Shown piece after piece: positions 3,992 to 47,297 of a stretch of 64,000 bases of DNA (its first letter is position 1; every line of letters starts with the position of its first letter). Made by a program: the position numbers and the translations under genes. The notes below the pieces were generated by a model that was not told where the DNA came from, searched no databases, and saw only the letters and a program-made list of their open reading frames with translations. Origin of the DNA: Anaerolineales bacterium (GTDB lineage Bacteria > Chloroflexota > Anaerolineae > JAAEKA01). Location: assembly GCA_020634615.1 (NCBI GenBank), contig JACKBI010000015.1, positions 100,230-164,229 of the forward strand, in the 5' to 3' direction.

Positions 3992-5215
3992 ATGGATTTC
4001 TCACTGTCCGACGAACATTTGCGTGCACAGCAAATGGTACGAACATTTGCCCAGCGGGAAGTTGCGCCGATCATCAAGGAAGCTGATCGCAATCAGTCCA
4101 TGCCACCGCACCTACTGCCGCGCATGGCCGAGCTGGGCATTCTCGGCATCTGCATCCCTGAACGCTATGGCGGCCAGGGTTTCGATTATATCACCCTGGG
4201 GCTGGCCTGCGAGGAACTGGAGGCGGCTGATACGAGTCTGCGGACAGCCATGTCGGTTCACGTGGGACTGAACAGCCTGACGCTGCTGCAGTGGGGCAGC
4301 GAAACGCAGAAGCAGCGCTTTCTGGCGCCACAGGCGCGCGGCGAGAAGGTGGCGATGTTTGGCCTGACCGAAGCAGGCGCAGGCAGTGACGTGGCTGCCA
4401 TGGCTTCCACTGCCCGTCGCGACGGAGCGGAGTACGTCGTCAACGGCGAGAAGATGTGGATCTCGCTGGCCAGCCTGGCCCATCACATCCTCTGGTTCGC
4501 GCGCACCAATCCGGAGCGCTCCGATCCGCACGAACAGCTTTCGGCCTTCATCATTGAGACCGACCGGCCCGGCGTCACCCGCGGCGACATCCACGGCAAA
4601 CTGGGCCTGCGCGCTGGCTCCACCGGCTGGGTGCATTGTCAGGATGTGCGTGTGCCGGCCGAGAACCGGCTGGGCGAGGAGGGCGAGGGGTTCAGGATCG
4701 CGATGTCGGCGCTGGACAACGGCCGTTACACGGTGGCCGCCGGGGCAACTGGGTTGATCCGCGCCGCGCTGGAGGCCAGCGTCAAGTACGCCAAAGAACG
4801 CAAGACCTTCGGTCGCGAGATTGGTCGTCACCAGTTGGTGCAACAGAAAATCGCGCGCATGTCCCGTGACTACGAGCTGGCCCGGCTGGCTTATCTGCAA
4901 GTGGGCTGGATGAAGAACCAGGGGCTGCGCAACACCAGGGAAGTATCACTGGCCAAGTGGTTCGCAACCGACGCATCCTTTGATGCGGCCAATGAGGCGG
5001 TACAAGTCCACGGCTCCTACGGCTACAGCGACGAGTACGATGTGGAGCGCTACCTGCGCAATTCAAAAGCGGCGGTGATCTACGAAGGGACCAGCGAGAT
5101 CCACCAGTTGATGCAAGCCGGCTATGCGCTGGGCTACCGCCAAGATGGCGACCTGCGCTGTGAACTGCCGACCTACGATCCGCAGGTGTGGCAGGGGGAG
5201 AGCGGTGACCAGTGA
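3992..5215 (+). CDS. Acyl-CoA dehydrogenase
   Basis: ACAD N, middle and C domains (…GLTEAGAGSDVAAMAST…YEGTSEIHQLM). An AGGAGG ribosome-binding site sits 7 nt upstream of the ATG at 3992; the ORF track's upstream start is unlikely. The final five codons and the stop lie inside a heptamer repeat element. Confidence 0.85.
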   Translation: MDFSLSDEHLRAQQMVRTFAQREVAPIIKEADRNQSMPPHLLPRMAELGILGICIPERYGGQGFDYITLGLACEELEAADTSLRTAMSVHVGLNSLTLLQWGSETQKQRFLAPQARGEKVAMFGLTEAGAGSDVAAMASTARRDGAEYVVNGEKMWISLASLAHHILWFARTNPERSDPHEQLSAFIIETDRPGVTRGDIHGKLGLRAGSTGWVHCQDVRVPAENRLGEEGEGFRIAMSALDNGRYTVAAGATGLIRAALEASVKYAKERKTFGREIGRHQLVQQKIARMSRDYELARLAYLQVGWMKNQGLRNTREVSLAKWFATDASFDAANEAVQVHGSYGYSDEYDVERYLRNSKAAVIYEGTSEIHQLMQAGYALGYRQDGDLRCELPTYDPQVWQGESGDQ

Positions 5216-5300
5216 CCAGTAATCAGTAACCAGTGATCGGTCAGGGGCAAAGCCACCGTCTACTGACTACTGACTACTGATAACTGATTACCGTTCACCG
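5204..5300. repeat. Heptamer-repeat hairpin element (CAGTGAY)n…(RTCACTG)n, family C, copy 1
   Basis: ggtgaccagtgaccagtaatcagtaaccagtgatcggtcagg…ctactgactactgactactgataactgattacc. It sits between convergent genes and probably acts as a terminator. Confidence 0.7.
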
Positions 5301-8410: not shown

Positions 8411-8480
8411 GCGTAGGAATGAGGGGATGGCAAATGATAGGGAGGGGAGGAAAAGGAGGAAAAAGGGGGAAAGGGGGGTC
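8411..8480. repeat. Purine-rich arm of the family-A G/A-rich repeat (half element)
   Basis: gggaggggaggaaaaggaggaaaaagggggaaagggggg, immediately followed by a family-B element. Confidence 0.5.
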
Positions 8481-8485
8481 AAGAG

Positions 8486-8574
8486 ACTTCGGAAGTCGCC
8501 GGTTGTGTACACATCTACATTTGCAACGAGAACGACCAGTCCGCGACGTGCTGGCGACTTCCGAAGTATGAGGG
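8486..8574. repeat. Family-B palindromic element with GACTTCGGAAGTCGCCG terminal inverted repeats, copy 1
   Basis: gacttcggaagtcgccgg…N52…ctggcgacttccgaagt. Confidence 0.7.
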
Positions 8575-12840: not shown

Positions 12841-12852
12841 CCCCCCCCCCCC
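12841..12852. repeat. C12 homopolymer (G12 on the coding strand of the flanking genes)
   Basis: Twelve consecutive C between the LuxR stop and the start of the secreted-protein gene. Confidence 0.9.
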
Positions 12853-18432: not shown

Positions 18433-19257
18433 ATGCAAAACCTGCGCCAGATTCCTTCACTCATGGGCAAACCACAGCCGCACCTGGCCGGCGAGCCGAT
18501 TCTCGCGCTGCGTGATGTTTCGGCGCGCTACAACGGCCGCTTTGCCCTGCAGGACATTTCGTTCGACCTGATCGCGGGCGAGCAGGTGGCGGTGGTCGGT
18601 CCTAACGGCGCGGGCAAGAGCACACTGTTCAAGGTCATCGCCGGCGTGCTGCCCAGCAGCGGCGGTGAAGTCACAGTGGCCGGCAGCGGGCCGGGCAAAC
18701 ATATCTGCATCGCCTATGTGCCACAGCGCAGCCAGGTGGACTGGACATTCCCCGTCGACGTAGCCGATGTTGTGATGATGGGACGCATTGGCCGTTTGGG
18801 GCTGTTTCGCCGACCCAAACGACTCGACTGGGACTATGTGCATCAGTCGCTGGCCGTGGTTGGCATGTCAGAGTTTGCCGAACGCCAGATCGGTGAGCTG
18901 TCCGGCGGCCAGCAGCAGCGCGTCTTCATTGCCCGCGCGCTGGCCCAGGAGGCAGAGCTGATGCTGATGGACGAACCGCTGACCGGGCTGGATGTGCGCT
19001 CTCAGGAGGACATCTTTGCCGTGCTGGACGAACTACGCGCCCGCGGCGTCACGGTAATGATTGCCACCCACGACCTCAACCTGGCTGCGGAGCGCTTCGA
19101 CCGGGTGATGCTGCTCAACGGCCGGCTGCTGGGCTTTGGCCGGTCCGAAACAGTATTCACCTCAGAACGCCTCCTGAGCGCCTACGGCGGTCACATCCGC
19201 ATGCTGGACACCGGCGACGGAACCCTGATCGTCAACGACACCTGCTGCGACCCGTAA
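18433..19257 (+). CDS. znuC: Zinc/manganese ABC transporter ATP-binding protein
   Basis: Walker A GPNGAGKST; signature LSGGQQQRV. The start is at MQNLRQ; the ORF track's upstream extension overlaps fur. Confidence 0.85.
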   Translation: MQNLRQIPSLMGKPQPHLAGEPILALRDVSARYNGRFALQDISFDLIAGEQVAVVGPNGAGKSTLFKVIAGVLPSSGGEVTVAGSGPGKHICIAYVPQRSQVDWTFPVDVADVVMMGRIGRLGLFRRPKRLDWDYVHQSLAVVGMSEFAERQIGELSGGQQQRVFIARALAQEAELMLMDEPLTGLDVRSQEDIFAVLDELRARGVTVMIATHDLNLAAERFDRVMLLNGRLLGFGRSETVFTSERLLSAYGGHIRMLDTGDGTLIVNDTCCDP

Positions 19258-19360
19258 GCAGTGATCAGTGATCAGTAGACAGTAAACAGTAGGCACGGGT
19301 CAGAGGACCGCGCTGATTACAAGGTTCTGATTACTGAATACTGGTTACTGGTTACTGGTC
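19258..19360. repeat. Heptamer-repeat hairpin element, family C, copy 2 (intra-operonic)
   Basis: cagtgatcagtgatcagtagacagtaaacagtag…ctgattacaaggttctgattactgaatactggttactggttactgg. Confidence 0.7.
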
Positions 19361-19371
19361 ACTTCCCGCCC

Positions 19372-21895: not shown

Positions 21896-22247
21896 GCTCC
21901 ATCTCGACGCCGATACCTCAATCCGTGCGCTTCAGCAGGCACTGGTGGCACGCGGCCACGACGTCACAAGGACTCCAAATCCCTGGATGCCGCACGACGC
22001 GTCCGATCGCAGCCAGTTGCTGGGCGCCAGCGCACAAGGGCGTGTCATTTTCACGTTCAACGTGCGTGACTTTCTTGCTCTGGCGCAGGTATATCAACAA
22101 CATGCCGGAATCGTACTGGCCGCCCAGCAGAGCTGGAGCATTTCGGATCTGATTGCAACACTTGATCGGCTCTTGTCAGAAACGAATGCAACTGACTGGA
22201 TCGGCCAGGTCCGCTGGCTCAACCAATGGCGCGACAAGCTCCCGTAA
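21880..22247 (+). CDS. DUF5615 (PIN/Mut7-C-like) protein, putative toxin partner of DUF433
   Basis: LHLDADTS…GHDV…PHDASD…GRVIFTFNVRDF. It overlaps the upstream gene by 16 nt. Confidence 0.6.
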
Positions 22248-22270
22248 CTCACTTGCTGCAAAGGCTCACC

Positions 22271-23170
22271 ATGACCGCTTACCTCGCTCTCGAATCGACC
22301 CTTATTTCCCACGGATTGCCCTATCCGCAGAATCTGGAGACTGCCCGTCGCCTGGAGGCGATTGCGCGCGAATCCGGCGCCGAGCCGCGGACTGTGGCGG
22401 TGATCAATGGTCAATTGCGCGCCGGACTGACGGGGGAGGAATTGGAATGTCTGGCCAGCACAGCAGGCGTGCGCAAGCTCTCACGCCGCGACCTGCCCAT
22501 CGCGGTCGCACGCGGTTGGACCGGCGCGACCACCGTCGCCACGACGATGTGGATCGCCGCGCAACACGGCATCCGCGTCTTCAGCACCGGCGGAATCGGC
22601 GGGGTACACAGGTTACAAGTGGCAAGTGGCAGGTGGCAGGTTGCTGGCGGCGCGATTGCAGCGGATGTTTCCGCGGATTTGCCTGAACTTGCGCAGACGC
22701 CGGTGGCTGTAATATGCGCTGGCGCCAAGGCGATCCTCGATCTGCCGGCGACGCTGGAATACCTGGAGACGTGGGGAGTGCCAGTAGTCGGCTACGGCAC
22801 CGATGAGTTCCCGGCCTTTTACACGCGGTGCAGCGGCCTGCCGGTCGATGTGCGCGTCGATACGCCAGAGGAAGCCGCTGCCATCATCGAGGCCAAGCGC
22901 AAGCTTGGGCTGCCCGGCGGCGTGCTGATCTGCGCACCGGTGCCGGCAGAGTTCGAGTTGCCCGCTGACGAAGCCAACGCGGCCATCGAGCAGGCGCTGG
23001 CTGAGGCCGACGAACAGGGCGTGCGCGGCAAGGAGATTACACCATTCCTGCTGGCCCGCATCGTCCAACTGACCGGTGAGCGCAGCCTGCGTGCCAATCT
23101 GGCACTTTTGGAAAACAACGTGCGCGTTGGCGCACAGATCGCGAAAGCGCTTGCTGCAATCACGTCATAG
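22271..23170 (+). CDS. psuG: Pseudouridine-5'-phosphate glycosidase
   Basis: MTAYLALESTLISHGLPYPQN…, an indigoidine synthase A-like fold. Confidence 0.85.
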   Translation: MTAYLALESTLISHGLPYPQNLETARRLEAIARESGAEPRTVAVINGQLRAGLTGEELECLASTAGVRKLSRRDLPIAVARGWTGATTVATTMWIAAQHGIRVFSTGGIGGVHRLQVASGRWQVAGGAIAADVSADLPELAQTPVAVICAGAKAILDLPATLEYLETWGVPVVGYGTDEFPAFYTRCSGLPVDVRVDTPEEAAAIIEAKRKLGLPGGVLICAPVPAEFELPADEANAAIEQALAEADEQGVRGKEITPFLLARIVQLTGERSLRANLALLENNVRVGAQIAKALAAITS

Positions 23171-24904: not shown

Positions 24905-25318
24905 TCACCCGTGTTCAAGCCCAATTTCCTCATTTCCCTCGTTTCCCTGTCCCTCCGTCCCAATCCACGGGACGCGCGCCAGATCGTCCAGACCGTGCTT
25001 GGCCAGCAGTTGCCGGAAGTCACTGCGTTTGTAGAGCTTGATGTTAACCTCGGGATACTGCTCCGCCAGCCAGCGGATCTTGCGGTTCTTGCGCCGCACC
25101 TGCTTGGGCCGCATCGTCGTGATTTCGACAAAGAGATCCTCGTCGGGCAGGTAGAAGTCAGGGGTGAAAGCCACCGCGGGATTGCCGTCCTGATCCGCAC
25201 GCAACACGAAGGTGCGCGGCTCGTATTCCCAGCGCACGCCATAGAAATCCAGCAGCCGCGCGAACTCCTCCTCCGCGGCGTGGGCAAAGGCGGGCAAAGA
25301 CGGTGGGATGTCGGGCAT
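24905..25318 (-). CDS. Hypothetical protein with a possible PD-(D/E)xK-like motif
   Basis: FTPDFYLPDEDLFVEITTMRPK. It is divergent from the Lon-like protease gene. The start is uncertain. Confidence 0.35.
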   Translation of the reverse strand: MPDIPPSLPAFAHAAEEEFARLLDFYGVRWEYEPRTFVLRADQDGNPAVAFTPDFYLPDEDLFVEITTMRPKQVRRKNRKIRWLAEQYPEVNIKLYKRSDFRQLLAKHGLDDLARVPWIGTEGQGNEGNEEIGLEHG

Positions 25319-28364: not shown

Positions 28365-29537
28365 GTGACTCCACCCGCCGGACCACTGAGCGTTGCGTTG
28401 CTCGCGGCAAACCCGTCGACGCCAACCCGTACATCGCATTGTTGCGCGCCGGGCTGGCCGACGCCGGCGTCGCGGCGACCATCGTTGATGACCCTGGACC
28501 AGACGGCCTGCCAGAGCCGGCCCGCCGCGCCGACATCGTGCATCTGCACTGGCTGGAACTGTGGGGCAGACCGCCCTATCGCAGCCTGCAACATCTGGCG
28601 CGCTGGGGTGTAGCAGGGCGGGCGGCGCGCGACGCTGGCTGGAGCCGGCCCTCAACAGCCCGTCCGTTCCGCTGCCCGCCGCGCACAGTTTCTTGACCGG
28701 TTCTTCGCCGCGTTGGCTGACTACAAAGCTGGCGGCGGGCGGCTGGTCTACACGCTGCACAACTGGGGCCAGCACGAAGGCGAGGGCGAGCAGGTGGAAG
28801 CGGCAGCGTTGGATCGATTGCTGCAACAGGCCGATGCCGTTCACGTCCACGCAGACTACATCGTCCCGCAGTTGCAGGCCAGGCTGCCCGCGGGTGCGTC
28901 GACCGTTGTGACGGTCATTCCCCACGGCAACTACATCGGCGCGTACCCGAACACCGCGGATCGCAGCGAAGCCCGCCAGCGCCTCGCCCTGCCAGACGAC
29001 GCATCTGTCTACCTGTTCTTCGGCCTGATCCGACCGTACAAAGGATTGGAAGAGCTGCTGCCGGCCTTTGTTCAGGTCGCCGACCCACAGGCGCGGCTGT
29101 TGATCGCCGGGCAGTCGCGGCCGCGCGACTATGCTGGTCAACTTGCCGGGAATACCAACGATGCCCGCATCCACTGGCATCCACAGTTCGTGCTGGATGA
29201 CGACATTCAGCTGTGGATGAACGCCGCGGACATCGTCGTCCTGCCGTACCGCCGTATCACCACCAGCGGCGCGGCCATGCTCGCCTGGAGCTTCGGCAAG
29301 CCGGTGATCGCCCCGGCGTTGCCTGCCTTTGTTGAGCCGATGGATAGAGCGCCTTTCCTCGGCGTCCTTTACGATCCCGGTGACCCAACAGCACTCGTAG
29401 CAGCGTTGCAGAAAGCGCAAGGCGGCGACTGGCAAATTTTCCAGCCCGATATCCTGACGTGGGCCGCGCAGTTCAACTGGCAGCGCATCGGACAGCGCTT
29501 CGCCAAACTTTACGGAGAGGTGATCAGTGACCAGTAA
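28365..29537 (+). pseudogene. GT4 glycosyltransferase with two frameshifts between about 28610 and 28685
   Basis: GT-like peptide occupies three successive frames: …ADIVHLHWLELWGRPPYRSLQHLARW (frame 2), then RRWLEPALNSP (frame 1), then RRAQFLDRFFAALADYKAGGGRLVYTLHNW… (frame 0), continuing to a GT-B C-terminal domain. Stop codons interrupt each frame. Confidence 0.45.
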
Positions 29538-29630
29538 TCAGTGATCAGTCCCGGATCCACCCAACGCAAGTTAGGCCGGTCAGGAGACTGTTTACCGATT
29601 ACTGATTACCGATCACCGATTACCTCCTCC
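29515..29630. repeat. Heptamer-repeat hairpin element, family C, copy 3
   Basis: gaggtgatcagtgaccagtaatcagtgatcagtcc…accgattactgattaccgatcaccgattacc. It supplies the last codons and the stop of the upstream gene. Confidence 0.7.
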
Positions 29631-29631
29631 C

Positions 29632-30843
29632 ATGAACTTCGTCGTCTTCGCCCCCAACCCCTGGCACGACATCTGGCGCAACCGCCAGCAGATCTTCAGC
29701 CGGCTGGCAGGACGTCACCGCGTCCTGTACATAGAGCCGGCGCGCGCCAGCCTGGCAGACTGGCGCCGCAGTCGCGTTACTCTGGCCGATCTGCGCCGTC
29801 CCGCCGTGGCCAAAGAACAGCCCAATCTGTGGCTATACCGCATCCCTGCTGCCCTGCCCAGCCGCGACACCGGCGACCTCTTCGACCGCACGACTGACCG
29901 CTTGCTGGCCGCCCACCTGCGCCGCACCCTCCGCCAACTCGATTTCCTTCCCAGCCCCCAGTCCCCAGTCCCCACGCCCTACGCCCCAGTTCTTTGGCTC
30001 TACCGTCCTACCCACTGGCGCTGGGCCACGGATAACATCCCGCACAGCCTGCTCGTCTACCACATCACCGACGACTACACCGCCTTCGGCCACCTCACAG
30101 CCGCCCAGCGCGACGCGATGGCAACCGCCGAGCGCAACCTGCTGGCCGCCGCCGACCTGACCATCGTCACCGCTCCGCGCCTGCTGGAGCTGAAACGCCC
30201 TTCCGCCCGCCGCATCGAACTCGTCCCCAACGGCGTCGATTTCGACGCCTTCCAACGCGCCCTCGCCAACCCGCGCAAACTCCCACAACTCGAGGCTCTC
30301 CAGCCCCCACACCCCATCCTGGGCTACAGCGGCCACATCAGCAGCCGTCTCGACCTGCCGCTACTGCGTGACCTGGCGCTGGCGCGACCGGAATGGCAGT
30401 TCGTCTTCGCCGGCAGCGAGGACGCGCGCGGTTGCGAGGCGGATCTGGCCGCCCTCAAATCGCTCCCCAACGCCCATTTTCTGGGCGTACTGCCCGTGGA
30501 AGACGTGCCGCACTTCATCGTCGCCTGCGACGTCTGCCTGATCCCCTACCGCATCAACGACGAGACGCGTGCCATCAGTTCGCTGAAGCTGTACGAGTAT
30601 CTCGCCGCAGGCAAACCCGTGGTCAGCGCGCGTGTGCCGGCGGCCGTGGAGTACGCCGATGTCGTCGAAATTGCAGATGGAACCGTGGACTCCTGGCTGC
30701 TCAGTCTGGCCAGCGCCCTTGGATCACAACAAGACGGTGAAGCAGCGACAGCCCGTCAAACCGTGGCTCTGGCAAACACGTGGGACGCTAGAGTGCAGCA
30801 GATCGAAACACTGATGGCGGATGCTCAACGAAACACAGCCTGA
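29632..30843 (+). CDS. Glycosyltransferase (group 1, TuaH-like), paralog A
   Basis: GT-B C-terminal motif …CDVCLIPYRINDETRAISSLKLYEYLAAGKPVV. Confidence 0.75.
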   Translation: MNFVVFAPNPWHDIWRNRQQIFSRLAGRHRVLYIEPARASLADWRRSRVTLADLRRPAVAKEQPNLWLYRIPAALPSRDTGDLFDRTTDRLLAAHLRRTLRQLDFLPSPQSPVPTPYAPVLWLYRPTHWRWATDNIPHSLLVYHITDDYTAFGHLTAAQRDAMATAERNLLAAADLTIVTAPRLLELKRPSARRIELVPNGVDFDAFQRALANPRKLPQLEALQPPHPILGYSGHISSRLDLPLLRDLALARPEWQFVFAGSEDARGCEADLAALKSLPNAHFLGVLPVEDVPHFIVACDVCLIPYRINDETRAISSLKLYEYLAAGKPVVSARVPAAVEYADVVEIADGTVDSWLLSLASALGSQQDGEAATARQTVALANTWDARVQQIETLMADAQRNTA

Positions 30844-32853: not shown

Positions 32854-34080
32854 ATGCCGCCCATCCTCTTCTTCACTCCCGACCCACCCACCGCGCTGTG
32901 GCAGGACAAGCCGCAGATCGCGCGGCGGTTGGCGCGGCGATTCACGGTGGTGATGGCCGGACCGGAGCTGCATCTGCCGTCCCTGCGCAGCCAGCATCGC
33001 GCCGGCCACTGGCATCTGGCCGATCTTCGCACGCCTCCGCTGACCCGCCTGGACGACAACCTCTACCGTTTCACCTGGTCGCCGCTCACCGCGGCCACCG
33101 GCGCGCCTATCCTCGGTAGCTGGACCGCTGCCGCCCGCCAACGACGCTGGCAATCCGCCCTGAACCAACTCGCCGCCACCCAGCCCCTAGTCCCCAATCC
33201 CCAGTCCCCATCCCCCATCCTCTGGCTCTTCCGTCCGGGCATGCTGCACTTCGTGGACGAGTTCAACCCGCAGTTGGTGATCTACCACGTGGTGGACGAG
33301 TACAGCGCATATCCTGGCCTCAGTGACGAGCAGCGAACTTTGCAGCGCAACCTGGACCGGCGGTTGACAGAGCGCGCGGATTTGGTATTCTGCACGGCCC
33401 GCAGTCTGGTCGAGGAGCGGCAGGCCATCAATCCCAACACGCACTACATGCCCAACGCGGTGGATTTCCGCGCCTTTCAACGTGAGCTGGCATCCGCGGA
33501 CGCCACGCCGCTGGACGAGCTGCCCCGGCCTGTGCTGGGTGTCGTCGGCGGAATCAATGCCAAGCTGGACCTGGAACTGCTGGCACCAGTGGCGCGGCAG
33601 CGGCCGGATTGGACGCTCGCGCTGGTGGGGCCGGTGAGCTACGGCGTCAGCGATGCAGACCTGGCCAGCCTGCGCAGCCTGCCAAACGTGCACTTCACGG
33701 GGCCGGTCGCGCACGAGCAGGTGCCGGCGGTGATCGGCGAGTGCGACGTTTGCCTGATCCCGTACCGGTTGAATGAGCAGACGCGGCACGTCAATCCGCT
33801 GAAAGTGTACGAGTACCTGGCAGGCGGCAAGCCAGTAGTGGCGACGCCGCTGCCTGAGTTGGCACAGTTCGGCAACACAGTACGCTTGGCCGGCGACGCG
33901 GCCGGCTTCATCGCTGCAGTCGAGGCGTCACTGCCCGAAACGGCCGATCCGCTGGCGCAGGCGACTCGACGGGCTGTGGCGGCAGCCAACACCTGGGATT
34001 TGCGCGTCGCGCGGATGATCGAGCTGGTGGACAGCGCACTGAGGGCTGCCCCACAGACGCCGCCAAACGATGCATGGTAA
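32854..34080 (+). CDS. Glycosyltransferase (group 1, TuaH-like), paralog B
   Basis: …CDVCLIPYRLNEQTRHVNPLKVYEYLAGGKPVV. Same architecture as the 29632..30843 gene. Confidence 0.75.
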   Translation: MPPILFFTPDPPTALWQDKPQIARRLARRFTVVMAGPELHLPSLRSQHRAGHWHLADLRTPPLTRLDDNLYRFTWSPLTAATGAPILGSWTAAARQRRWQSALNQLAATQPLVPNPQSPSPILWLFRPGMLHFVDEFNPQLVIYHVVDEYSAYPGLSDEQRTLQRNLDRRLTERADLVFCTARSLVEERQAINPNTHYMPNAVDFRAFQRELASADATPLDELPRPVLGVVGGINAKLDLELLAPVARQRPDWTLALVGPVSYGVSDADLASLRSLPNVHFTGPVAHEQVPAVIGECDVCLIPYRLNEQTRHVNPLKVYEYLAGGKPVVATPLPELAQFGNTVRLAGDAAGFIAAVEASLPETADPLAQATRRAVAAANTWDLRVARMIELVDSALRAAPQTPPNDAW

Positions 34081-35895: not shown

Positions 35896-36387
35896 GTGAT
35901 AAAATCCTCGTACGACACCACTCTGGACGACCTGGATCGCCAAATACTGAAAGAATTGCAGGAGGATGGCCGGCTGAGCAGCGTCGAACTGGCCCGCCGC
36001 GTTGGACTGTCTACCTCCGCCACCCACGCGCGCATCAAGCGGCTGGAGCAGGACGGCTACGTCGATCGCTACGTGGCGCTGCTGAACTGGGAGCAGGCCG
36101 GCTACGACATGGTCTGCTTCGTGAACGTCAGCCTGCAGATGCACCAGCCCGACAGCGTGACCGCTTTCAAAGCCGCCGTGCAGGCCATGCCCGAGGTGCT
36201 GGAAGCGTTTCATGTCACCGGCGAATTCGACTACCTGCTAAAGGTGGCGATCCGCAACCGCAAGGACCTGGAGCGTTTCGTGCTCCACCGCCTGACACCC
36301 ATCGCCGGCGTGGCGCGCATCTACACCAGCCTGGTGCTGAGCGTAGTCAAGGCGTCCACGGCGCTGCCGCTGGACGGGGATCAGTGA
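35896..36387 (+). CDS. Lrp/AsnC family transcriptional regulator
   Basis: HTH_AsnC with a RAM domain. 163 aa. Confidence 0.9.
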   Translation: MIKSSYDTTLDDLDRQILKELQEDGRLSSVELARRVGLSTSATHARIKRLEQDGYVDRYVALLNWEQAGYDMVCFVNVSLQMHQPDSVTAFKAAVQAMPEVLEAFHVTGEFDYLLKVAIRNRKDLERFVLHRLTPIAGVARIYTSLVLSVVKASTALPLDGDQ

Positions 36388-36480
36388 TCGGTACGCAGTG
36401 TCCCTGACTTGCCAGTTCCGACGATAGGCAAGCAGTAAGCTGTGAACGGATCGCTCACAGCACAGAAAACGAGACAAAAT

Positions 36481-37722
36481 ATGTTCATGGCGGCCACAGC
36501 AACGCAAGCAGCATTGTCGAACGGAGCACGCACGATACCCGCCCAACTCGCGCTGAGCAGCGAAGCTGGCACACTCAAGCGCTCGGTGATGCGCGAGTTG
36601 TTAAAGCTGACAGCGCGCGCTGATGTGATCTCACTGGCAGGCGGGCTGCCGGCCAGCGAGTTGCTGCCATTGGCTCAGTTGCAGGAGTGCATCGAAACCG
36701 TGTTACGGCGCGACGGAACGCGCGCCTTGCAATACAGCCCGATGATCGAACCGCTGCGCCGCTGGATCTGCGACACCATGCGCGCCAGAGGCGTCGCGTG
36801 TGAGCCAGAGCAGGTCCACATCACCAACGGCGCACAGCAGGGTCTGACCATCCTGTCGCGGCTTTTTCTCAATCCCGACCAGCCTGCCGTGGTCGAAGCA
36901 ATCACCTTCACCGGCATTCAGCAGGTAACCGCCGGCCGAGGCGCAGTGATGCGCACGGTCCCCACCGACCTGGCCACCGGCGTTGATGTCGACGCGCTGG
37001 AGGAGGCATTTCACCGCACGCCGCGGCCGCGGCTGGCCGTGGTCATCCCCGACTTCCACAACCCGCTGGGCGTCAGCCTCACTCTCGAGAAGCGGCAGCG
37101 CATCGCTGAACTGGCAGCTCGCTACCGGGTGCCGCTGGTGGAGGACGACCCCTATTCCGCGTTGAGATTCGACGGCCAGTCGTTACCGCCCATCAAGGCG
37201 TTCGACGAGGCCGGCGCCGTGTTTTACATCGGCTCGTTTTCCAAGATGCTGGCGCCGTCGCTACGGCTGGGCTGGATCGTTGCTCCGGCTGAACTGGCCT
37301 CGCAGGTGACGGTGCTGCGCGAGTCCATCGACCTGGAATCTTCGACATTGATCCAGCGCGCAGTCAGCCTGTTTGTTGAACAAGGGCTGATGGCAGGACA
37401 CCTGGCGCGCTTCAACGCTGCCAACCGCTGCCGCCGCGATGTGTTGTTCGACGCGTTGGCACACTATCTCGGTGACCGGGCAAGCTGGACACGGCCGGAA
37501 GGCGGGCTGTTCGTCTGGCTGACGCTACGCGAGGAAATCGACACGTGGGCGTTACTGGAAGATGCGATCGCAGCAGGTGTGGCTTTCGTGCCCGGAGCGG
37601 CGTTTGCGCTGAACGGCGGCTCCCACAACACACTGCGCCTGAATTTCAGCAACGTGCAGCCGGAGTTGATCCCCGTCGCAGTCGAGCGATTGGCGCAGGT
37701 GATCAAGCAGAAGGGGAAATGA
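36481..37722 (+). CDS. PLP-dependent aminotransferase (LysN/2-aminoadipate aminotransferase-like)
   Basis: Collinear with Thermus LysN (…[27 protein letters not shown]…[15 protein letters not shown]…). Confidence 0.8.
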
Positions 37723-37803
37723 GGGAAAGAAGGGAAAGGAAGGAAACGCCCTCCCGCCCAAGGTTGTTTCGTCGGGTTTCCCTTCTTTCCTTCCTTTCCC
37801 TCC
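37712..37803. repeat. Family-A element: purine arm, spacer, pyrimidine arm
   Basis: gggaaatgagggaaagaagggaaaggaaggaaac…gtttcccttctttccttcctttccc. Confidence 0.65.
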
Positions 37804-37810
37804 AGCTTGT

Positions 37811-38491
37811 GTGATTACCATGACCCAACCCACGTTCATTCCCCTCGACTTCACCGAATACCCGCCCGACGAGATGCAGCGGCGGGCTGAGGCGTTCTAC
37901 GCTGAGCTCAGCCGGCGACGGACGGTGCGCGAGTTTTCCGACCGGCCTGTGCCGCGCGCATTGATCGAAACGTGCCTCCTGGCGGCCGGCAGCGCCCCCA
38001 ACGGCGCCAACCTGCAACCATGGCATTTCGTCGCCGTGGCCGCCCCGGCCATCAAACGCCAGATCCGCGCGGCGGCTGAGGCCGAGGAGCGGGAGTTCTA
38101 CAGCGGGCGCGCGCCGCAGGAGTGGATCGACGCGCTTGCGCCGCTGGGCACCGATCCCAACAAGCCATTCCTGGAGATCGCTCCCTGGCTGATCGTGATC
38201 TTCGGCCAGTCCTACGGTTTGCTGCCTGATGGCCGCAAGGTGAAACACTACTACGTGCAGGAGTCGGTCGGCATCGCGACGGGGATGCTGATCACCGCGC
38301 TGCACCACGCCGGACTGGCCACGCTGACCCATACACCCAATCCCATGGGTTTCCTCAACGACCTGCTGGGCCGGCCGGCCAATGAACGGCCGTTCCTGAT
38401 CCTGGTGGCCGGTTACCCGGCCGCGGACGCGCGCGTGCCAACTCACGCGCTGAACAAGAAGCCATTGAACGAGATCGCGACGTTTATCTGA
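37811..38491 (+). CDS. Nitroreductase-family flavoprotein (iodotyrosine-deiodinase-like)
   Basis: Nitroreductase fold signatures; 226 aa. Confidence 0.75.
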
Positions 38492-38510
38492 GAGGCCTTT
38501 CGCAGATCCA

Positions 38511-38596
38511 GACTTCGGAAGTCGCCGGGTCTACCTGTAGAGCCGGTTTGCGCGTTCAGGGCTGTCTTCTTTGCAAGCCGGCGACTTCCGAAGTCT
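38511..38596. repeat. Family-B palindromic element, copy 3
   Basis: gacttcggaagtcgccggg…N46…gccggcgacttccgaagtc. Confidence 0.75.
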
Positions 38597-38640
38597 TTGA
38601 TAACAGCCTCCAGACGAATCTATACAAGAGGAGTACTGCC

Positions 38641-39765
38641 ATGACCGTGCCAACCAACGGCGCACGCGCCATCACCGAGGAAGCCGATTTCCTGCAACTG
38701 AAAGCTATCGACCACGTTCACTGGTGGGTGGGCAACGCCAAGCAGACCATGTACTACTGGTGGAAGGCGTTCGGATTCAAGCCGGTGGCCTATTCCGGGC
38801 TGGAAACCGGCAATCGCCAGTTCGCGTCATATGTGCTGGAATCGGGCAAGATTCGTTTCGTCATCTCCGCCGCCTACGGCCCCAGCAGCGAGATCGCCGC
38901 GCATCATCTGGTCCACGGCGACGGCATCAAGGCCATCGCGTTGACAGTGGATGACGTGGAGAAAGCCTGGCGCGAGACCACCCAGCGCGGCGGCAAGAGC
39001 GCCTGGGCGCCGCGCGAGGAAGCGGACGAGTACGGTGTACTGCGTACCTCAGCCATCCAAATCTACGGCGAGGTGCTGCATGTCTTCGTGGATCGCAACG
39101 ACTACCGCGGTCCCTTTGCGCCCAGCTACCGACCGCTGGACATGCCGGCCCAGTCGACCGGACTGGCGGCTGTCGATCACATGGTGGGCAACGTGCAGCT
39201 TGGCAAGATGAACTACTGGGTCAACTTCTACCACCAGGTGATGGGCTTCCGCCAGTTGCTGCACTTTGACGACCAGGACATCAGCACCGAATACTCTGCG
39301 CTGATGTCGAAGGTGATGCAGAACGGCAGCGGGCGGGTCAAGTTCCCCATCAACGAGCCGGCTGAGGGCAAGCGCAAGAGCCAGATCGAGGAATACCTGG
39401 ACTACTACATGGGGCCGGGAGTGCAACACGTGGCCATGAGCACCGGCGATATTCTGGCGACGATGAGCCAGTTGCGCGCCAACGGCGTCGAGTTCCTGCG
39501 CGTGCCAGACGCCTATTACGACCAGTTGCCCGAGCGGATCGGCAAGATCGACGAGGACATGGCGGCCATCCGCGAGATGGGAATCCTGGTGGATCGGGAC
39601 GACGAGGGCTATCTGTTGCAGGTCTTCTCGCGCCCCCTGCAAGACCGTCCCACCGCGTTCATCGAGGTCATCGAGCGCCACGGCAGCCGCGGCTTCGGCA
39701 AAGGCAACTTCAAGGCGCTGTTCGAGGCGCTGGAAATGGAGCAGGAGCGGCGCGGCAATCTGTAG
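38641..39765 (+). CDS. hppD: 4-hydroxyphenylpyruvate dioxygenase
   Basis: Two VOC modules, with iron ligands in HVAMSTGD…; 374 aa. Confidence 0.9.
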   Translation: MTVPTNGARAITEEADFLQLKAIDHVHWWVGNAKQTMYYWWKAFGFKPVAYSGLETGNRQFASYVLESGKIRFVISAAYGPSSEIAAHHLVHGDGIKAIALTVDDVEKAWRETTQRGGKSAWAPREEADEYGVLRTSAIQIYGEVLHVFVDRNDYRGPFAPSYRPLDMPAQSTGLAAVDHMVGNVQLGKMNYWVNFYHQVMGFRQLLHFDDQDISTEYSALMSKVMQNGSGRVKFPINEPAEGKRKSQIEEYLDYYMGPGVQHVAMSTGDILATMSQLRANGVEFLRVPDAYYDQLPERIGKIDEDMAAIREMGILVDRDDEGYLLQVFSRPLQDRPTAFIEVIERHGSRGFGKGNFKALFEALEMEQERRGNL

Positions 39766-39852
39766 GGGGTGGGGAGTGGGGAATGGGGACTGGGGATCAG
39801 CCCTCACTCCGGTTTCCCTCCTTTCCCTTCTTTCCTTCCTTTCCCTCTTCTC
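39766..39852. repeat. Family-A element with a G-quadruplex-prone purine arm
   Basis: ggggtggggagtggggaatggggactgggga…tttccctcctttcccttctttccttcctttccc. Confidence 0.7.
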
Positions 39853-39868
39853 AAAGGAGCGTTACCCT

Positions 39869-40494
39869 TGGAAATCACCCCCTCCTCCCTCCCCTGGCAG
39901 TCGCTGTACAAGCTGATGATTGGGTCGATTGTGCCGCGCGCCATTGGCTGGGTGTCGACTGTGAACGAGGCGGGCGAGCCGAATCTCGCGCCGTTTTCGT
40001 TTTTCACCGCGGCCGGGGCCAATCCGCCGCATGTTCTGTTCTGCCCGATGATCCGCTCCACCGACGGCCAGCCCAAGGACACGTTGCACAACGTGCGCGC
40101 CACGGGTGAGTTCGTCGTCAACATCGTCACCGAGGCTCTGGGACCGGCGATGAACATCACGTCAACTGAGCTGCCTGCGGATGTGAACGAGTTCGCGGCG
40201 GCCGGATTGACGCCGGCGCCATCGAGCGTGGTGCGCCCGCCGCGTGTCGCTGAAAGCCCCATCCACTTCGAGTGCCGGCTGACGCAGATCGTCGATCTTG
40301 GCGACCAGCCCGGCGCGGCCAGCGTGGTCATCGGCGAGGTCGTGCATTTACACGTGGACGACGCGCTGCTGATCGGCGGCGACAAAATCGACATCGCGCA
40401 GTTGCAACCCATCGGCCGCCTGGCCGGCAACAGCTACAGCCGCGTCGCCCCGGCCATGTTCGACCTCATCCGCCCGCCTTCACAGATCGGATAG
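39869..40494 (+). CDS. Flavin reductase-like (FMN-binding split-barrel) protein
   Basis: AAAGGAG ribosome-binding site 8 nt before TTG at 39869; …SLYKLMIGSIVPRAIGWVST… The ORF track's upstream start lies in repeat sequence. Confidence 0.7.
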
Positions 40495-40505
40495 AAGCTC
40501 ACCAC

Positions 40506-40588
40506 GGAGAGAAGGAGGGAAAGGAGGGAAAGAGACAAGCGCAGGTCGGCCCCTTGGTTTCCCTCATTTCCCATCTTTCCCTCTTCCC
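40506..40588. repeat. Family-A element
   Basis: ggagagaaggagggaaaggagggaaagagac…ggtttccctcatttcccatctttccctcttccc. Confidence 0.65.
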
Positions 40589-40590
40589 AT

Positions 40591-41070
40591 TCATCGAAAT
40601 CGGTCACGAAATGTCTGAATCTGGCCACTGTGCTCGCGCTTGTGGCCGTAGTATTGATAGGCGATCAGATCTTCCAGGTCGTATTGCGCGCCGTACCAGG
40701 GAATCGCACCGGTCCGCTGCAGCAAGCCGGCCGGCAGATCGCTGACCAGTCCACGGACCTGTTCGTGCGCGGCGAGGTATTCCTCGAGGCACCGTTCGTA
40801 CGTCCAGCCGTTGCGCAGTTCGTCCACCTGATGATCGTTGAACGCCTGCCCGTCGGCTTTGAGCGCATCGCGCAGCGGGGTCGGACACGGTGTCACCACA
40901 TCCTGCAGCACCTCCACCAGCACCAGCTCAAAAGATGCCAGATGCGCCACCAGATCCTTGACCGACCAGTAGCCTACCGCCCCACTGGTGGTGCGCTGGT
41001 CGGCCGGAACCAGATCCAGCGTGCGCATGAACGTAAAATGGCCGTACATCAAAACGTCGGACGCGTGCAT
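40591..41070 (-). CDS. DinB/ClbS(DfsB)-like four-helix-bundle protein
   Basis: …WSVKDLVAHLASFELVLVEVL… pattern. Confidence 0.5.
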   Translation of the reverse strand: MHASDVLMYGHFTFMRTLDLVPADQRTTSGAVGYWSVKDLVAHLASFELVLVEVLQDVVTPCPTPLRDALKADGQAFNDHQVDELRNGWTYERCLEEYLAAHEQVRGLVSDLPAGLLQRTGAIPWYGAQYDLEDLIAYQYYGHKREHSGQIQTFRDRFR

Positions 41071-41074
41071 GGCG

Positions 41075-42262
41075 TTACTCCTTGAAGTGTGACAGCGCAG
41101 CGGCAAACCCGGGCAGGGCGCGATCAATCATCGCATCGCTGGCAGTGATCGAGATACGAAAATAGCCGGGCATCTCGAATGTTGCGCCCGGCAGCACCAA
41201 CACGTCACGCTCCGCCAGCCAGTGGCAAAACGCCACATCGTCGGCCAGCGGTGAACGCACCAGCAGATAGAAGGTCCCCTCCGGGCTGCGCAGGGAGTAA
41301 CCCATGTCGCGCAGCGCGCTCACGAGCCTGTCACGCTTGGCCTGCAGGTGCTCGATGTCGATGGAGAGCTTTTCCAGGTCGGGCAGGGCATGCTGCAACA
41401 GGGCGTTGGGAAAAGCGTAGGCCGTAACGACCTGGGACGCGAGGATTGCCGGACGCATTGCCTCGCGCGCCGGCATTGACGGCGGCAGTGCGATGTAGCC
41501 GATGCGCTGGCCGGGCGTCAACAGCGTCTTGCCATAGGTGTAGAGCAGAAACGACTGATCGTAATAGGCAGTCGGGGTCGTGAACTCGCGGCCATCGTAG
41601 ACGATCCGGTTGTACGACTCGTCGGACAGCAGGTAGATCGTCCGGCCGTTGCGCTGGCTGGCAGCCGTCAGCAGATCTGACAGCGCTGTCAGCGTGGCCG
41701 GCGGGTAGATCCTGCCGGTGGGATTGTTAGGCGAATTGACAATGATGGCGCGCGTCCGCGGCGTGATGGCAGCCTCGATCGCGGCCAGGTCCAGGTCGAA
41801 GCTGACCGGGTCGCACTGCACCCGCACCGGCGTTCCCATGCTGGAGGCAATCATCGCTTCGTAGAAGAACCAGGGCGGGCTGATGTAGATGATCTCGTCG
41901 CCCGGATCGGTGATCGCGCCTAACGCCACAGCGATGGCTGCGAATGCGCCGTTGGTCATGAAGATGTCGTCAGCGTCAAAGGGCATGTCGAAGCGCTGCC
42001 GCAGCGTTTCAGCCACGATACGGCGCGGGCCTGGCTCGCTCATTTTGTAGGCGAACCAATCCTTGTCGTGCGGCGTGCTCCAGCGCTGCAATGCCTCGGT
42101 GAACTCCGGCAGCGGCATCTCCTGCGGATTGCCGGCCACAAAATCGCTGACGCCGGGGTTCCCCATGCGCGAGGTCACGACCGGGTCCTGGAAGAAATTA
42201 AGGAACGGGCTCATGGCCCCAAGCACCGCGGCGATGCGTTTCGATCCTGATACAGGTATGGA
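41075..42262 (-). CDS. Class I/II PLP-dependent aminotransferase
   Basis: …NSPNNPTGRIY… and a PLP lysine region (YGKTLL…). Confidence 0.8.
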   Translation of the reverse strand, partial: SIPVSGSKRIAAVLGAMSPFLNFFQDPVVTSRMGNPGVSDFVAGNPQEMPLPEFTEALQRWSTPHDKDWFAYKMSEPGPRRIVAETLRQRFDMPFDADDIFMTNGAFAAIAVALGAITDPGDEIIYISPPWFFYEAMIASSMGTPVRVQCDPVSFDLDLAAIEAAITPRTRAIIVNSPNNPTGRIYPPATLTALSDLLTAASQRNGRTIYLLSDESYNRIVYDGREFTTPTAYYDQSFLLYTYGKTLLTPGQRIGYIALPPSMPAREAMRPAILASQVVTAYAFPNALLQHALPDLEKLSIDIEHLQAKRDRLVSALRDMGYSLRSPEGTFYLLVRSPLADDVAFCHWLAERDVLVLPGATFEMPGYFRISITASDAMIDRALPGFAAALSHFKE

Positions 42263-45811: not shown

Positions 45812-47297
45812 TTACGCCTTGATCAAGGAAACATACGTGCCCTGCACAGTTGAATAGAATGAGACAGTTGTCCAACCAGGCGACCAGATGCGCTGGTCGA
45901 TCCTGGGGCCAATCTTGCCATCCGGGCTAATCTGGTGCATGTGCATACGTCCATTACCATTTTTCAACAAGAACAGGTAGTTCTGCCCGCCGATTGCGTA
46001 GGTCTTCGCAGTTGTCCACCCCGAGGACCAGTCGCGATTGTCAATGACCGGTCCAATCTTTCCGTCGGCGTTGATCTCGTTGACGTGCATCCGCCCATCA
46101 CCCGCTTTCAGCAGGAATAGGTAGTTCTTTCCTCCAATCGCGAATGTGCTCGCGGATGTCCAACCTGAAGACCAATCCTGGTTGTCAATCATCGTTCCAA
46201 TCGTACCATCGGCATTGATTTCATTGACGTGCATCCGCCCGTCACCCGCTTTCAGCAGAAACAGGTAATTCTTGCCCCAGATCGTGTAGATCGCCGCTGA
46301 TGTCCAGCCCGATGACCAGTCCTTGTTGTCGATGAGTGCCCCGATCGTGCCATCGGCATTGATTTCATTGACGTGCATCCGCCCGTTTCCCTCTTTCAAC
46401 AGAAACAGGTAATTCTTGCCCCAGATCGTGTAGATCGCCGCTGACGTCCAGCCCGATGACCAGTCCTTGTTGTCAACGATGTCCCCAAAGCTTCCGTCAG
46501 CATTGATCTCGCGAACAATCATCCACCCATCTCCCTTCTTCAGAAAGAACAGATAGGTCTTCGAGCCGATGGTAAACGGGGCACTTGTCGTCCACCCATC
46601 CGACCACGATCGCATGTCTACCGTGTGATTCACCTCGCCGTGCGGGAACAACTTGTAGACGTGCGAGTTTCCGGCAGTTAGCTCCGCGGCTGTGGCTTGA
46701 TCGCCCGGACTAAACGGACCTGGTGACAGCGAACACAACAGATCGACATACCCGCTGGGTGGAGCAATAAACACATCCTTGGTTGGATCAACTGCAAAGG
46801 CGCGCCGGCAGTAGTGCATCATGGATAGATAATCATAGTTGCCAACATTGACGCTGGCGGCGTCACTCATCTTGATGAAATTTGCAGCCTTCACAGGGTC
46901 AACGTTGTCAAAATCAATCGTTACCCAATCATCCCTGTCACTGCGCATATGTTCATGAATCATCCCCACGGCATGACCAATCTCGTGTTCAATCCTGCAA
47001 CTGATGTTTGGGTTCGGGTTCTCGGGAACCAGGACGATCTGAATGCCGCCAGCCATTCCAGCCGCAGTCGAAAAACAGAAATCCAGCGCGGCCCCGCCAA
47101 ATGATTGAAATGAGATGTAGTTGGTCTGATTGGCACGGGGGATCAATGTGATGCCGACCGCCAGATCGTTCCATGCTGCAATGGCAGTGTTGACACGACT
47201 GACCGTGGTAGGAAAGACACTCTCGTCAATGTCAATTTGATATGGCACACATCCATCCGGCCAGTACGTTTTCTTGTCGCTCGTGATGATTCCCATG
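45812..47297 (-). CDS. Astacin (M12A) zinc metalloprotease with six C-terminal ~45-aa tandem repeats
   Basis: HEIGHAVGMIHEHMRSDRDD and the Met-turn SMMHY. The protein begins directly with a mature-astacin-like N terminus (…WPDGCVPYQID…) and has no signal peptide or prodomain. It lies in a low-GC segment. Confidence 0.8.

Follow-up and report, generated by a model that had tools for sequence, protein, structure and literature searches.

Paired short-unit repeat arrays as candidate slippage-prone RNA hairpins at gene ends in an Anaerolineales genome

A 64-kb stretch of DNA from an Anaerolineales bacterium of the phylum Chloroflexota (contig JACKBI010000015.1; hereafter the window, in whose coordinates positions are given) contains three elements of ~85-95 nt each, E1 (37711-37803), E2 (39765-39852), and E3 (40506-40588), whose starts coincide with, or lie no more than 12 nt from, the stop codons of genes encoding an aminotransferase, 4-hydroxyphenylpyruvate dioxygenase (hppD), and a flavin reductase. 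Their arms are short tandem arrays, typically of three to five units, of GGGAAANRA or its complement. Judging from sequence, these elements very probably represent one family of a broader class that this Caldilineae-like genome shares with its relatives, namely paired arrays of 7-, 8-, or 9-nt units, found in gaps between co-directional or convergent genes. On balance, we lean slightly towards viewing them as slippage-prone repeat hairpins that would act as RNA stem-loops at gene ends and not as classical terminators. This leaning is a compromise between the well-founded class identity and an RNA-level role at gene 3′ ends, which by analogy is possible but for which we would not claim even odds.

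Results

Arrays of a 9-nt unit at the ends of three genes

The usual layout is a G/A-rich array, followed by a unique GC-rich spacer of 10-50 nt and then by the complementary array (an R-Y pair, with the purine-rich arm before the pyrimidine-rich arm). Gene identities are based on Pfam matches on the corresponding public contig and on NCBIfam; for hppD, TIGR01263 scores 434 bits, the cut-off being 277. The elements, their parts, the half copies, and the adjoining genes are as follows.

36442-37722, plus strand: pyridoxal phosphate-dependent aminotransferase gene, upstream of E1
37711-37747, plus strand: E1 5′ arm, ~4 units GGGAAANRA (AAGGGGAAATGA GGGAAAGAA GGGAAAGGA AGGAAAC)
37748-37775, plus strand: E1 spacer or loop, 28 nt, GC-rich and non-repetitive
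37776-37803, plus strand: E1 3′ arm, three units TTTCCCTNN (GTTTCCCTTC TTTCCTTCC TTTCCCTCC)
38641-39765, plus strand: hppD gene, upstream of E2
39765-39796, plus strand: E2 5′ arm, GGGGGTGGGGAGTGGGGAATGGGGACTGGGG, (GGGGANT) x4.6, of a 7-nt family resembling the STRR1 and GGGGA(C/T)T repeats considered below
39812-39852, plus strand: E2 3′ arm, ~4 units TTTCCCTNN (GTTTCCCTCC TTTCCCTTC TTTCCTTCC TTTCCCTCTTCTC)
39868-40494, plus strand: flavin reductase gene, between E2 and E3
40506-40535, plus strand: E3 5′ arm (GGAGAGAAGGA GGGAAAGGA GGGAAAGAGA), 12 nt past the flavin reductase stop TAG (40492-40494)
40557-40588, plus strand: E3 3′ arm (GTTTCCCTC ATTTCCCAT CTTTCCCTC TTCCC), 2 nt before the stop (40591-40593) of a convergent DinB_2 gene
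8439-8478, plus strand: solo purine array (half copy), adjoining an inverted repeat of a second family, family B, at 8485-8570
24924-24950, minus strand: solo 9-mer array (half copy), purine-rich on the minus strand (GGGAAACGA GGGAAATGA GGAAAT)

In E1, the aminotransferase stop TGA (37720-37722) sits within a repeat unit, GGGAAATGA, and the ATG of the next gene, encoding a nitroreductase, is found at 37820, 17 nt past the pyrimidine arm. The 5′ arm of E2 opens on the G of the hppD stop TAG (39763-39765) and is separated from the 3′ arm by a 15-nt spacer; a Shine-Dalgarno (SD) sequence, AAAGGAG (39853-39859), directly follows the pyrimidine arm and precedes the TTG start of the flavin reductase gene. 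The original prediction, an annotation of this DNA made from its letters, had placed one element right after each of the three stop codons, and all three were found at these sites. It had also placed a purine half copy at 8411-8480, beside a family-B element, which is present at 8439-8478, and the flavin reductase start at 39869, which needs correcting to 39868; the half copy at 24924-24950 is additional. The elements are not unique to this locus, with half copies elsewhere in the window and a repeated family in other Chloroflexota.

Composition and periodicity both set these arms apart. When one mismatch is allowed, GGGAAAGGAGG occurs 13 times in the window, against 0.92 expected, and none of 100 shuffles reached 13. 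Five purine-only or pyrimidine-only tracts of 26-40 nt are present, all of them within E1-E3 and the half copy at 8439-8478, and in 300 Markov-1 random sequences such tracts reached 20 nt at most. As assessed by Tandem Repeats Finder (TRF), all arms have a 9-nt period (GGGAAAGGA x3.7; TTTCCCTCC x3.0, x3.9, and x3.2) except the G-run arm at the 5′ side of E2, which has a 7-nt period (GGGAGTG x4.6). E2 thus combines two repeat families in one hybrid element.

Unit consensus across Chloroflexota

A sequence logo was built from 230 Chloroflexota units registered on their GGAAA core. The consensus is GGAAA-N-R-A-G. Position 6 is free (A 0.17, C 0.23, G 0.35, T 0.24; i.e. 47% pyrimidine), position 7 is a purine in most units (G 0.55, A 0.33), position 8 is predominantly A (0.87), and position 9 is predominantly G (0.74). 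A full GGAGG is created by only 9.6% of the units. With nearly half pyrimidines at position 6 and so few GGAGG strings, purine purity and likeness to SD sequences are traits of the window copies and not of the family. The earlier description of the arms as purine tracts full of AAGGAGG strings thus holds for the local copies only, and SD/anti-SD mimicry as a conserved trait is ruled out by the logo. The unequal conservation of adjacent positions, with position 6 free and positions 8 and 9 constrained, does not fit the neutral decay of slipped copies and is, at the level of sequence, the best hint of a sequence-specific constraint.

Folding and arm pairing

The hairpins predicted for the three elements were only partly borne out by RNA folding, which supports E1 (−50.8 kcal/mol, z −4.7) and E3 (−39.7 kcal/mol, z −3.0) and does not support E2 (z +0.77). 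Folds computed with DNA parameters rank the elements as the RNA folds do (E1, z −3.5), and the single-stranded DNA hairpin energies are −17 to −25 kcal/mol. The inverted repeats are 85-92% complementary across 24-27 nt. This pairing is a generic, register-tolerant outcome of placing complementary periodic arrays next to each other; given the periodicity of all arms, a G-rich arm can pair in more than one register with whichever C-rich arm of its family it meets. Neither arm appears to be a recent inverted copy of its partner in the 26 R-Y elements compared. Compensatory evolution and an origin by inverted duplication were ruled out, cognate arms being no more complementary than non-cognate ones, as was strand-specific RNA selection, sense and antisense energies being equal.

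A long-range match was also seen. The E1 purine arm (37714-37747) is 91% complementary over 34 nt to the E2 pyrimidine arm (39812-39845), and its match to its own pyrimidine arm (27 nt, 85%) is poorer. These two arms, 2 kb apart, could pair in a polycistronic transcript, looping out the nitroreductase and hppD genes.

A broader class of paired arrays

Pairs built of other units occur elsewhere in the window, together with a second family-B element.

5205-5291: (CAGTGAC)n / (CTACTGA)n pair of 7-nt units between convergent genes; RNA fold −48.6 kcal/mol, z −6.5
19254-19363: (CAGTRAN)n / (CTGRTTA)n pair of 7-nt units filling a co-directional gap; stop TAA at 19255-19257, next ATG at 19372
29520-29624: pair of 7-nt units; stop TAA at 29535-29537 inside the first arm, next ATG at 29632; RNA fold z −7.8
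38510-38596: family-B element between the nitroreductase and hppD genes, with a perfect inverted repeat of 19 bp, AGACTTCGGAAGTCGCCGG

The heptamer pairs consist of a CAGTRAY-type array followed by an RTYACTG-type array, with RNA folds at z −4.2 to −7.8. Each fills one entire intergenic gap, with the upstream stop codon inside or abutting the first arm. Considering all pairs in the window, at each of the eight gene 3′ ends that adjoin one the stop codon lies inside an arm or within 12 nt of it. The family-B inverted repeats (38510-38596 and 8485-8570) have loops of 49-60 nt, and the one at 38510-38596 occupies its gap as the heptamer pairs do theirs.

TRF analysis of 299 kb, comprising the window and the Chloroflexota loci described below, found many arrays of 7-, 8-, and 9-nt units, mostly as adjacent complementary pairs. 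Among the 9-mer arrays, 27 pairs are R-Y and three are Y-R, alongside 40 solo arrays. Since the reverse complement of an R-Y pair is again R-Y, this excess is a true asymmetry and not a strand artefact. The G-rich arm comes first in all 14 scorable 9-mer pairs and in 10 of the 11 scorable pairs of the other unit families, which played no part in the choice of loci (in the remaining one the C-rich arm is first). Overall, this G-first rule holds in 24/25 scorable pairs. Several solo 9-mer arrays (for example in loci L021, L036, L084, and L092) have a partner from a different family, like the arms of E2. Other Chloroflexota MAGs also have composites, at 439-649 in L061 and 900-1131 in L092, in which a 9-mer array is nested within an 8-nt pair or an 8-nt array within a 9-mer pair; they suggest insertion of arrays into other arrays, or growth within them.

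Gap statistics were obtained with approximate home-made gene calls based on GC content at third codon positions (GC3), on loci that had been selected for containing a 9-mer array. With this reservation, arrays were found in 28 of 138 co-directional, 12 of 43 convergent, and 3 of 32 divergent gaps, and paired arrays in 13 co-directional, four convergent, and no divergent gaps. This trend towards fewer arrays in divergent gaps is seen even though those gaps are the longer ones.

Three further repeats of the window are recorded here. A heptamer array, (CAAGTGG) x3.3, lies at 22616-22641 inside the open reading frame (ORF) at 22226-23170. A 144-nt tandem repeat of 3.1-3.7 copies with 81-82% identity spans 45941-46536, where the GC3 caller placed no gene. 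Finally, a homopolymer of 12 C at 12841-12852, in an AT-richer stretch, is a possible slippage-prone tract.

Turnover of the slots among relatives

An identical HppD protein is encoded on contig JACKBH010000009.1 of a metagenome-assembled genome (MAG; GCA_020634655.1) and on nine metagenome scaffolds from activated sludge. The MAG contig (L001) is not identical to the window, which matches a closely related, L002-type strain. At ~860-980 of L001, corresponding to 29500-29632 of the window, the arms are of CGGTRAY type, the spacer is not that of the window, and the upstream gene ends differently on its 3′ side, the hppD genes being identical. In the strain scaffold L005, the pyrimidine arm of E1 has exactly one extra 9-nt unit. 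Strain variation at E3 was considered and set aside, most differences being gaps in the scaffolds and not variants; runs of N are found at E3 in L003, L005, L008, and L009 and nearby in L002 and L007.

At a greater distance, the orthologous gene cluster was compared in three loci, L014 and L035 (both of MAG CAVPPH) and L088 (MAG JAWKOJ), where the HppD protein is 93-95% identical and four-fold sites are 75% (L014) or 67% (L088) identical. The E1 slot contains a 9-mer R-Y element in every genome compared. Its spacer is homologous in the window and L014, and the number and order of units differ. The persistence of E1 in three genomes was ruled out as a sign of selection; with four-fold sites still 67-75% identical, shared ancestry is enough to account for it.

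The other slots are less constant. At E2, the 5′ arm is an ordinary 9-mer purine arm in L014 and L088 and unrelated sequence in L035. The SD sequence and TTG start that follow are kept in all four genomes, including L035, which has no 9-mer array; the suggestion that the downstream TTG start might depend on E2 is therefore not upheld, the AAGGAG and TTG lying 3′ of the pyrimidine arm and being conserved with or without the array. At E3, L014 and L035 have no element, only 1-5 nt separating the two stop codons, and L088 has a (GGTCAGAGGGGCAGAA)n/(CTCTGTCC)n pair of an 8/16-nt family. The family-B slot contains a (GAGAGGCA)n/(CTCTGATCC)n pair in L088, a small (GCAGAGA)3 pair in L014, and almost nothing in L035. 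On these comparisons, turnover is fast compared with point substitution, and it proceeds by whole units, arms, and elements.

The flanks of E3 carry a short direct repeat (TCACCRC ... TCATCGA) that is present as one copy in the empty sites of L014 and L035. In L088, a different repeat family sits at the same point within the same flanks (window, 40495-40600; L014, 2295-2430; L035, 4835-5100; L088, 6700-6980). The direct repeat may have arisen as a target-site duplication or been left behind by a deletion.

G-quadruplex potential of the E2 arm

The original prediction had singled out a five-run G-quadruplex (G4) motif in the copy distal to hppD. This motif is present; the 5′ arm of E2 contains five runs of at least four G, and its G4Hunter score of 2.76 is the maximum of the window. 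The next scores, 2.68 and 2.36, belong to GGGGANT/CCCCAGT arrays within two glycosyltransferase ORFs. Among E1-E3, four or more runs of at least three G with short loops are found in the E2 5′ arm only, E1 and E3 having fewer than four GGG runs on the plus strand and G4Hunter scores below 1.5. Assignment of the G4 arm to the same family as the other arms does not hold, as it belongs to a separate GGGGANT heptamer family and two related genomes carry an ordinary 9-mer purine arm at this place. The arm is a member of the GGGGANT heptamers that replaced the 9-mer arm in this lineage, and its G4 potential, although real as sequence, is not conserved at the locus.

The glycosyltransferase ORFs just mentioned are paralogous, and their (CCCCAGT)-type arrays (29950-29988 and 33179-33220) are G-rich in antisense, with G4Hunter scores of 2.4-2.7. 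Linkers rich in Pro, Ser, and Gln are apparently encoded by them, at matching relative positions in the two ORFs.

Searches for terminators, promoters, and known RNA families

A consensus scan of 36000-42000 found no terminator-like site on the plus strand and, on the minus strand, two weak ones against 4.7 expected. No T/U tract follows the stems, the 3′ flanks being CCAGCTTG, CAAAGGAG, and CATTCATC. The proposal that the elements terminate transcription thus finds no support in either respect. A promoter scan detected no promoter near the elements, and only 2-11 nt separate the ends of the hairpins at E1, 19254, and 29520 from the start codon that follows, which leaves no room for one. At gathering thresholds, Rfam gave no matches in the whole window, and an E-value search of 37600-40700 returned only sub-threshold look-alikes of miRNA precursors (≤34 bits, with 60-100 required).

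Distribution in Chloroflexota

We scanned one genome per species, for 185,579 species, with GTTTCCCTYNTTTCCYNNNTTTCC as a query and obtained at least 112 loci. Among the loci listed, 55/112 are from Chloroflexota, representing at least 21 MAGs, although this phylum accounts for only a few percent of species. The MAG labels among the matches listed include Caldilineae, Caldilineales, Anaerolineales, Thermoflexales, Chloroflexaceae, and others, and the best-represented MAGs there have several copies each (JACKBK at least 12, CAVPPH at least 10, and JAWKOJ at least six loci). Most of the listed matches outside Chloroflexota are perfect GTTTCCCTT arrays, which are different in nature. The same unit families recur in MAGs labelled Caldilineae, Anaerolineae, and Chloroflexia.

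Discussion

Relation to known repeats

A search of the open-access literature gave no account of the 9-nt GGGAAANRA family, nor of Chloroflexota hairpins made of paired repeats. The closest parallel is the G-rich simple sequence repeats of Xanthomonas, (GGGANTN)n or (GGGAATC)n, and of Nostoc, GGGGA(C/T)T, for which no function was identified (Rehm et al. 2015, PMC4692102). They have a conserved core and free positions, usually number ~4 units, and are dispersed and mostly intergenic (PMC4692102). Their G-rich strand is the coding strand when they lie within 50 bp of a stop codon or overlap it, and the non-coding strand upstream of ORFs; they are under-represented between divergent ORFs, and in each Xanthomonas genome inverted repeats arise from 70-75 convergent pairs (PMC4692102). 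Length and sequence vary strongly between close species, and oligonucleotides related to GGGGA(C/T)T form G4 in vitro (PMC4692102). The arrays described here are similar in being tandem repeats with a core and free positions (TRF periods 9 and 7; logo GGAAA-N-R-A-G), in their many dispersed copies (in 64 kb, three complete ones and two halves), in their placement at stop codons (8/8 gene ends of the window, and the 13/4/0 distribution of paired arrays over co-directional, convergent, and divergent gaps as a trend), in forming inverted repeats where two arrays are in convergent orientation, and in varying in unit number and sequence between relatives. Moreover, the unit of the E2 5′ arm is nearly identical to that of Nostoc. 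They differ in that the main unit is the 9-nt GGGAAANRA with weak G4 potential, the host belongs to Chloroflexota, and several families of 7-, 8-, and 9-nt units coexist and form hybrid pairs. On this comparison, what would be new is the 9-nt unit, the phylum, and the hybrid arms, the architecture being already known elsewhere.

Mazel et al. reportedly described in 1990 the cyanobacterial STRR heptamers STRR1, with unit CCCCA(A/G)T, STRR2, and STRR3. TAACTGA heptamers are found in Beggiatoaceae, cyanobacteria, and Bacteroidetes; most were described as direct repeats that closely precede start codons, and a single indirect repeat was reported (MacGregor 2015, PMC4679880). Both are dispersed intergenic heptamer arrays, sometimes within ORFs, of filamentous hosts, and the CCCCAGT, CAGTRAY, and TACTGAT-type units of the window resemble STRR1 and TAACTGA units. 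Unlike them, the arrays reported here are mostly inverted pairs after stop codons, and their 9-nt units fall outside those descriptions. An excess of heptamers in bacteria was explained by slippage by Mrazek, as far as his account is cited in PMC4679880 and PMC4692102. In a Nostoc preprint, heptamer repeats affect the expression of recF and recO by a mechanism that was not resolved (10.1101/2022.06.06.494920). Within Chloroflexota, scattered (GATAGRA)n heptamer satellites were reported in Chloroflexus aurantiacus (Subirana and Messeguer 2019, PMC6749651). The phylum was thus already known to be rich in tandem repeats of short units; that unit differs from those of the window, and the description as satellites reports no pairing, orientation rule, or placement at gene ends (PMC6749651). 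In addition, oligopurine tracts are over-represented in Chloroflexus and Roseiflexus (PMC4060949).

The repetitive extragenic palindromes (REP) and mosaic elements (BIME) of enterobacteria and the REPINs of Pseudomonas (PMC3116915) are likewise abundant intergenic palindromes at gene 3′ ends and within operons, and REP-type RNA stem-loops can stabilise upstream mRNA (PMC3116915). Of the functional analogies, we prefer this one. However, REPs are conserved imperfect palindromes of ~35 nt mobilised by the RAYT transposase, whereas the elements here have periodic arms of variable length and unrelated spacers. By the traits that define REPs and REPINs they do not belong there, spacers being unrelated, arm lengths variable, and cognate arms not specifically matched. 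We know of no link between RAYT and repeat-armed pairs in Chloroflexota.

Weighing the explanations

The reading towards which we lean, slippage-prone hairpins acting at the RNA level, would run as follows. Arrays gain or lose whole units by slippage, a slot can swap one arm for that of another family, and entire elements come and go among close relatives. The transcript of either strand would carry a long imperfect stem-loop of −40 to −50 kcal/mol, the base of which would include the upstream stop codon. Elements would be kept at gene 3′ ends as functional, or at least harmless, RNA stem-loops that, in the manner of REP elements, may protect or mark 3′ ends and insulate adjacent cistrons; the hairpin, being periodic, would tolerate slippage. 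The G-first rule points to a process with a 5′-to-3′ direction, such as transcription or translation; a possible rationale is that a C-rich arm emerging first would expose unpaired C-rich RNA. A number of results weigh against this account. The RNA fold of E2 is no better than shuffles and its ensemble is diffuse, and the other hybrid pairs likewise show no defined hairpin. In the 26 R-Y elements, the ungapped Watson-Crick score of an arm is 14.96 with its own partner and 15.28 with arms of other elements (permutation p = 0.71), and the corresponding duplex energies are −35.0 and −34.9 kcal/mol (p = 0.43); cognate and non-cognate arms being equal, there is no covariation support for a selected structure. 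Sense and antisense RNAs fold equally stably, with no strand-specific RNA signal. The empty E3 slots of L014 and L035 imply that a hairpin is not required there, the depletion of arrays in divergent gaps is a trend and not significant, and fast turnover would fit a mutational or selfish origin as well as a function.

As the main rival explanation, the arrays may be by-products of replication slippage, or selfish, without a function, of which only harmless placements survive, i.e. downstream of genes and with the G-rich arm first. This rather unlikely explanation, the least so of the alternatives, readily accounts for the fast turnover with one slot empty in close relatives, the unit-sized indels between strains, the hybrid arms of unrelated families, and the equal complementarity of cognate and non-cognate arms, and it has a precedent in Mrazek's account of heptamers in the form in which PMC4679880 and PMC4692102 cite it. 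Nevertheless, neutral decay would not be expected to leave position 6 free with A at position 8 (87%) and G at position 9 (74%), the same unit families occur in Caldilineae-, Anaerolineae-, and Chloroflexia-labelled MAGs, and the strong G-first rule needs a directional process. Turnover could also reflect insertion at gene ends of miniature mobile elements similar to MITEs or REPINs by a transposase or RAYT-type enzyme, given the absence of E3 in L014 and L035, the 6-7-nt direct repeat that is single in these empty sites, the other family at the same point and within the same flanks in L088, and the arrays nested in arrays in L061 and L092. We find this quite improbable, as spacers are unrelated between copies, internal sequences, termini, and core are not conserved, unit number is variable, and cognate arms are not copies of each other; no transposase was seen beside any copy, although none was searched for systematically, and the direct repeat is short, includes a stop codon, and represents one case. 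Non-B DNA structures (G4, H-DNA triplex, or cruciform) that modulate replication or transcription are the least probable of the explanations considered. The E2 arm with its five G runs, the G4 formed in vitro by related GGGGA(C/T)T oligonucleotides (PMC4692102), the E1 DNA fold (z −3.5), and the oligopurine tracts of Chloroflexus and Roseiflexus (PMC4060949) speak for them. Yet the G4 arm is not conserved at its slot, E1 and E3 have low G4 scores and too few GGG runs, the pure tracts of 26-40 nt suited to H-DNA are a feature of the window copies, with 47% pyrimidine at position 6 in the family, and the modest energies of the single-stranded DNA hairpins would have to compete with the duplex.

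Two further explanations start from the position of the elements relative to genes. The original prediction, that they could terminate transcription and sequester or mimic ribosome-binding sites through their SD-like strings, would make them Rho-independent terminators, bidirectional between convergent genes. Like such terminators, they are stem-loops just past stop codons, including between convergent genes (E3 and the pair at 5205), a setting in which one expects a terminator to be bidirectional; both strands form long, stable stems, no pair lies in a divergent gap, and UUU recurs every 9 nt in each 3′ arm. We nonetheless judge this improbable. Unlike terminators, the stems are long, rich in A/G and U/C, devoid of a 3′ U-tract, and placed between tightly spaced co-directional genes, whose next starts are 2-11 nt from the hairpins (17 nt from the E1 arm) with no room for a promoter; the scans found no plus-strand terminator in 36000-42000 and no promoter near the elements, and the rarity of full GGAGG strings in the family argues against mimicry of ribosome-binding sites. 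The same tight spacing raises the idea of translational coupling in co-directional gaps, in which a ribosome finishing the upstream gene would unmask the adjacent start. In three of the four co-directional elements of the window, the stop codon is inside the paired 5′ base, and in those three the last paired base is 2-11 nt from an ATG without SD sequence (37820, 19372, and 29632); the nitroreductase start has no SD sequence in three genomes, and in L001 an SD sequence is present in 12-13 of 20 database-called genes, three of those without one following such arrays or overlapping the preceding gene. Pairing of the last codons and stop of the upstream gene with the stretch 2-11 nt before the ATG is the geometry expected for coupling by unmasking, in a sample too small to claim it. 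Coupling is inapplicable to the convergent copies (E3 and 5205), the flavin reductase gene after E2 has its own conserved SD sequence, and the sample is very small, its verified start codons all lying in the window; we consider it no more probable than termination. Bolder, and a little less probable again, is a gene-boundary device common to Chloroflexota, in which core units (GGGAAA, CAGT, GGGG) would be seeded at stop codons and the hairpin would couple the stop to an SD-less start and cap convergent 3′ ends. Terminating ribosomes would melt the hairpin base and re-initiate downstream, and seeding at stops by a sequence-specific process would explain the free position 6, the shared families, and the insertions at the same point with the same flanks.

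Significance

For annotation, our analysis suggests that these elements should not be labelled as terminators, riboswitches, or small RNAs, and that the G4 motif following hppD is to be read as a repeat arm peculiar to this lineage and not as a conserved regulator of hppD. The elements also have practical consequences, since they break short-read assemblies (five of nine metagenome scaffolds have N gaps exactly at E3) and mislead gene callers, which call ORFs into the arms. If the density of the window, about one element per 8-10 kb, is representative, there would be several hundred per Caldilineae genome. More generally, an architecture known from Xanthomonas and cyanobacteria, where its function has been unexplained for decades, would extend to another filamentous phylum and to a 9-nt unit, and the G-first rule, the logo with one free position, and the stop/start geometry may provide testable handles on the function of such repeats.

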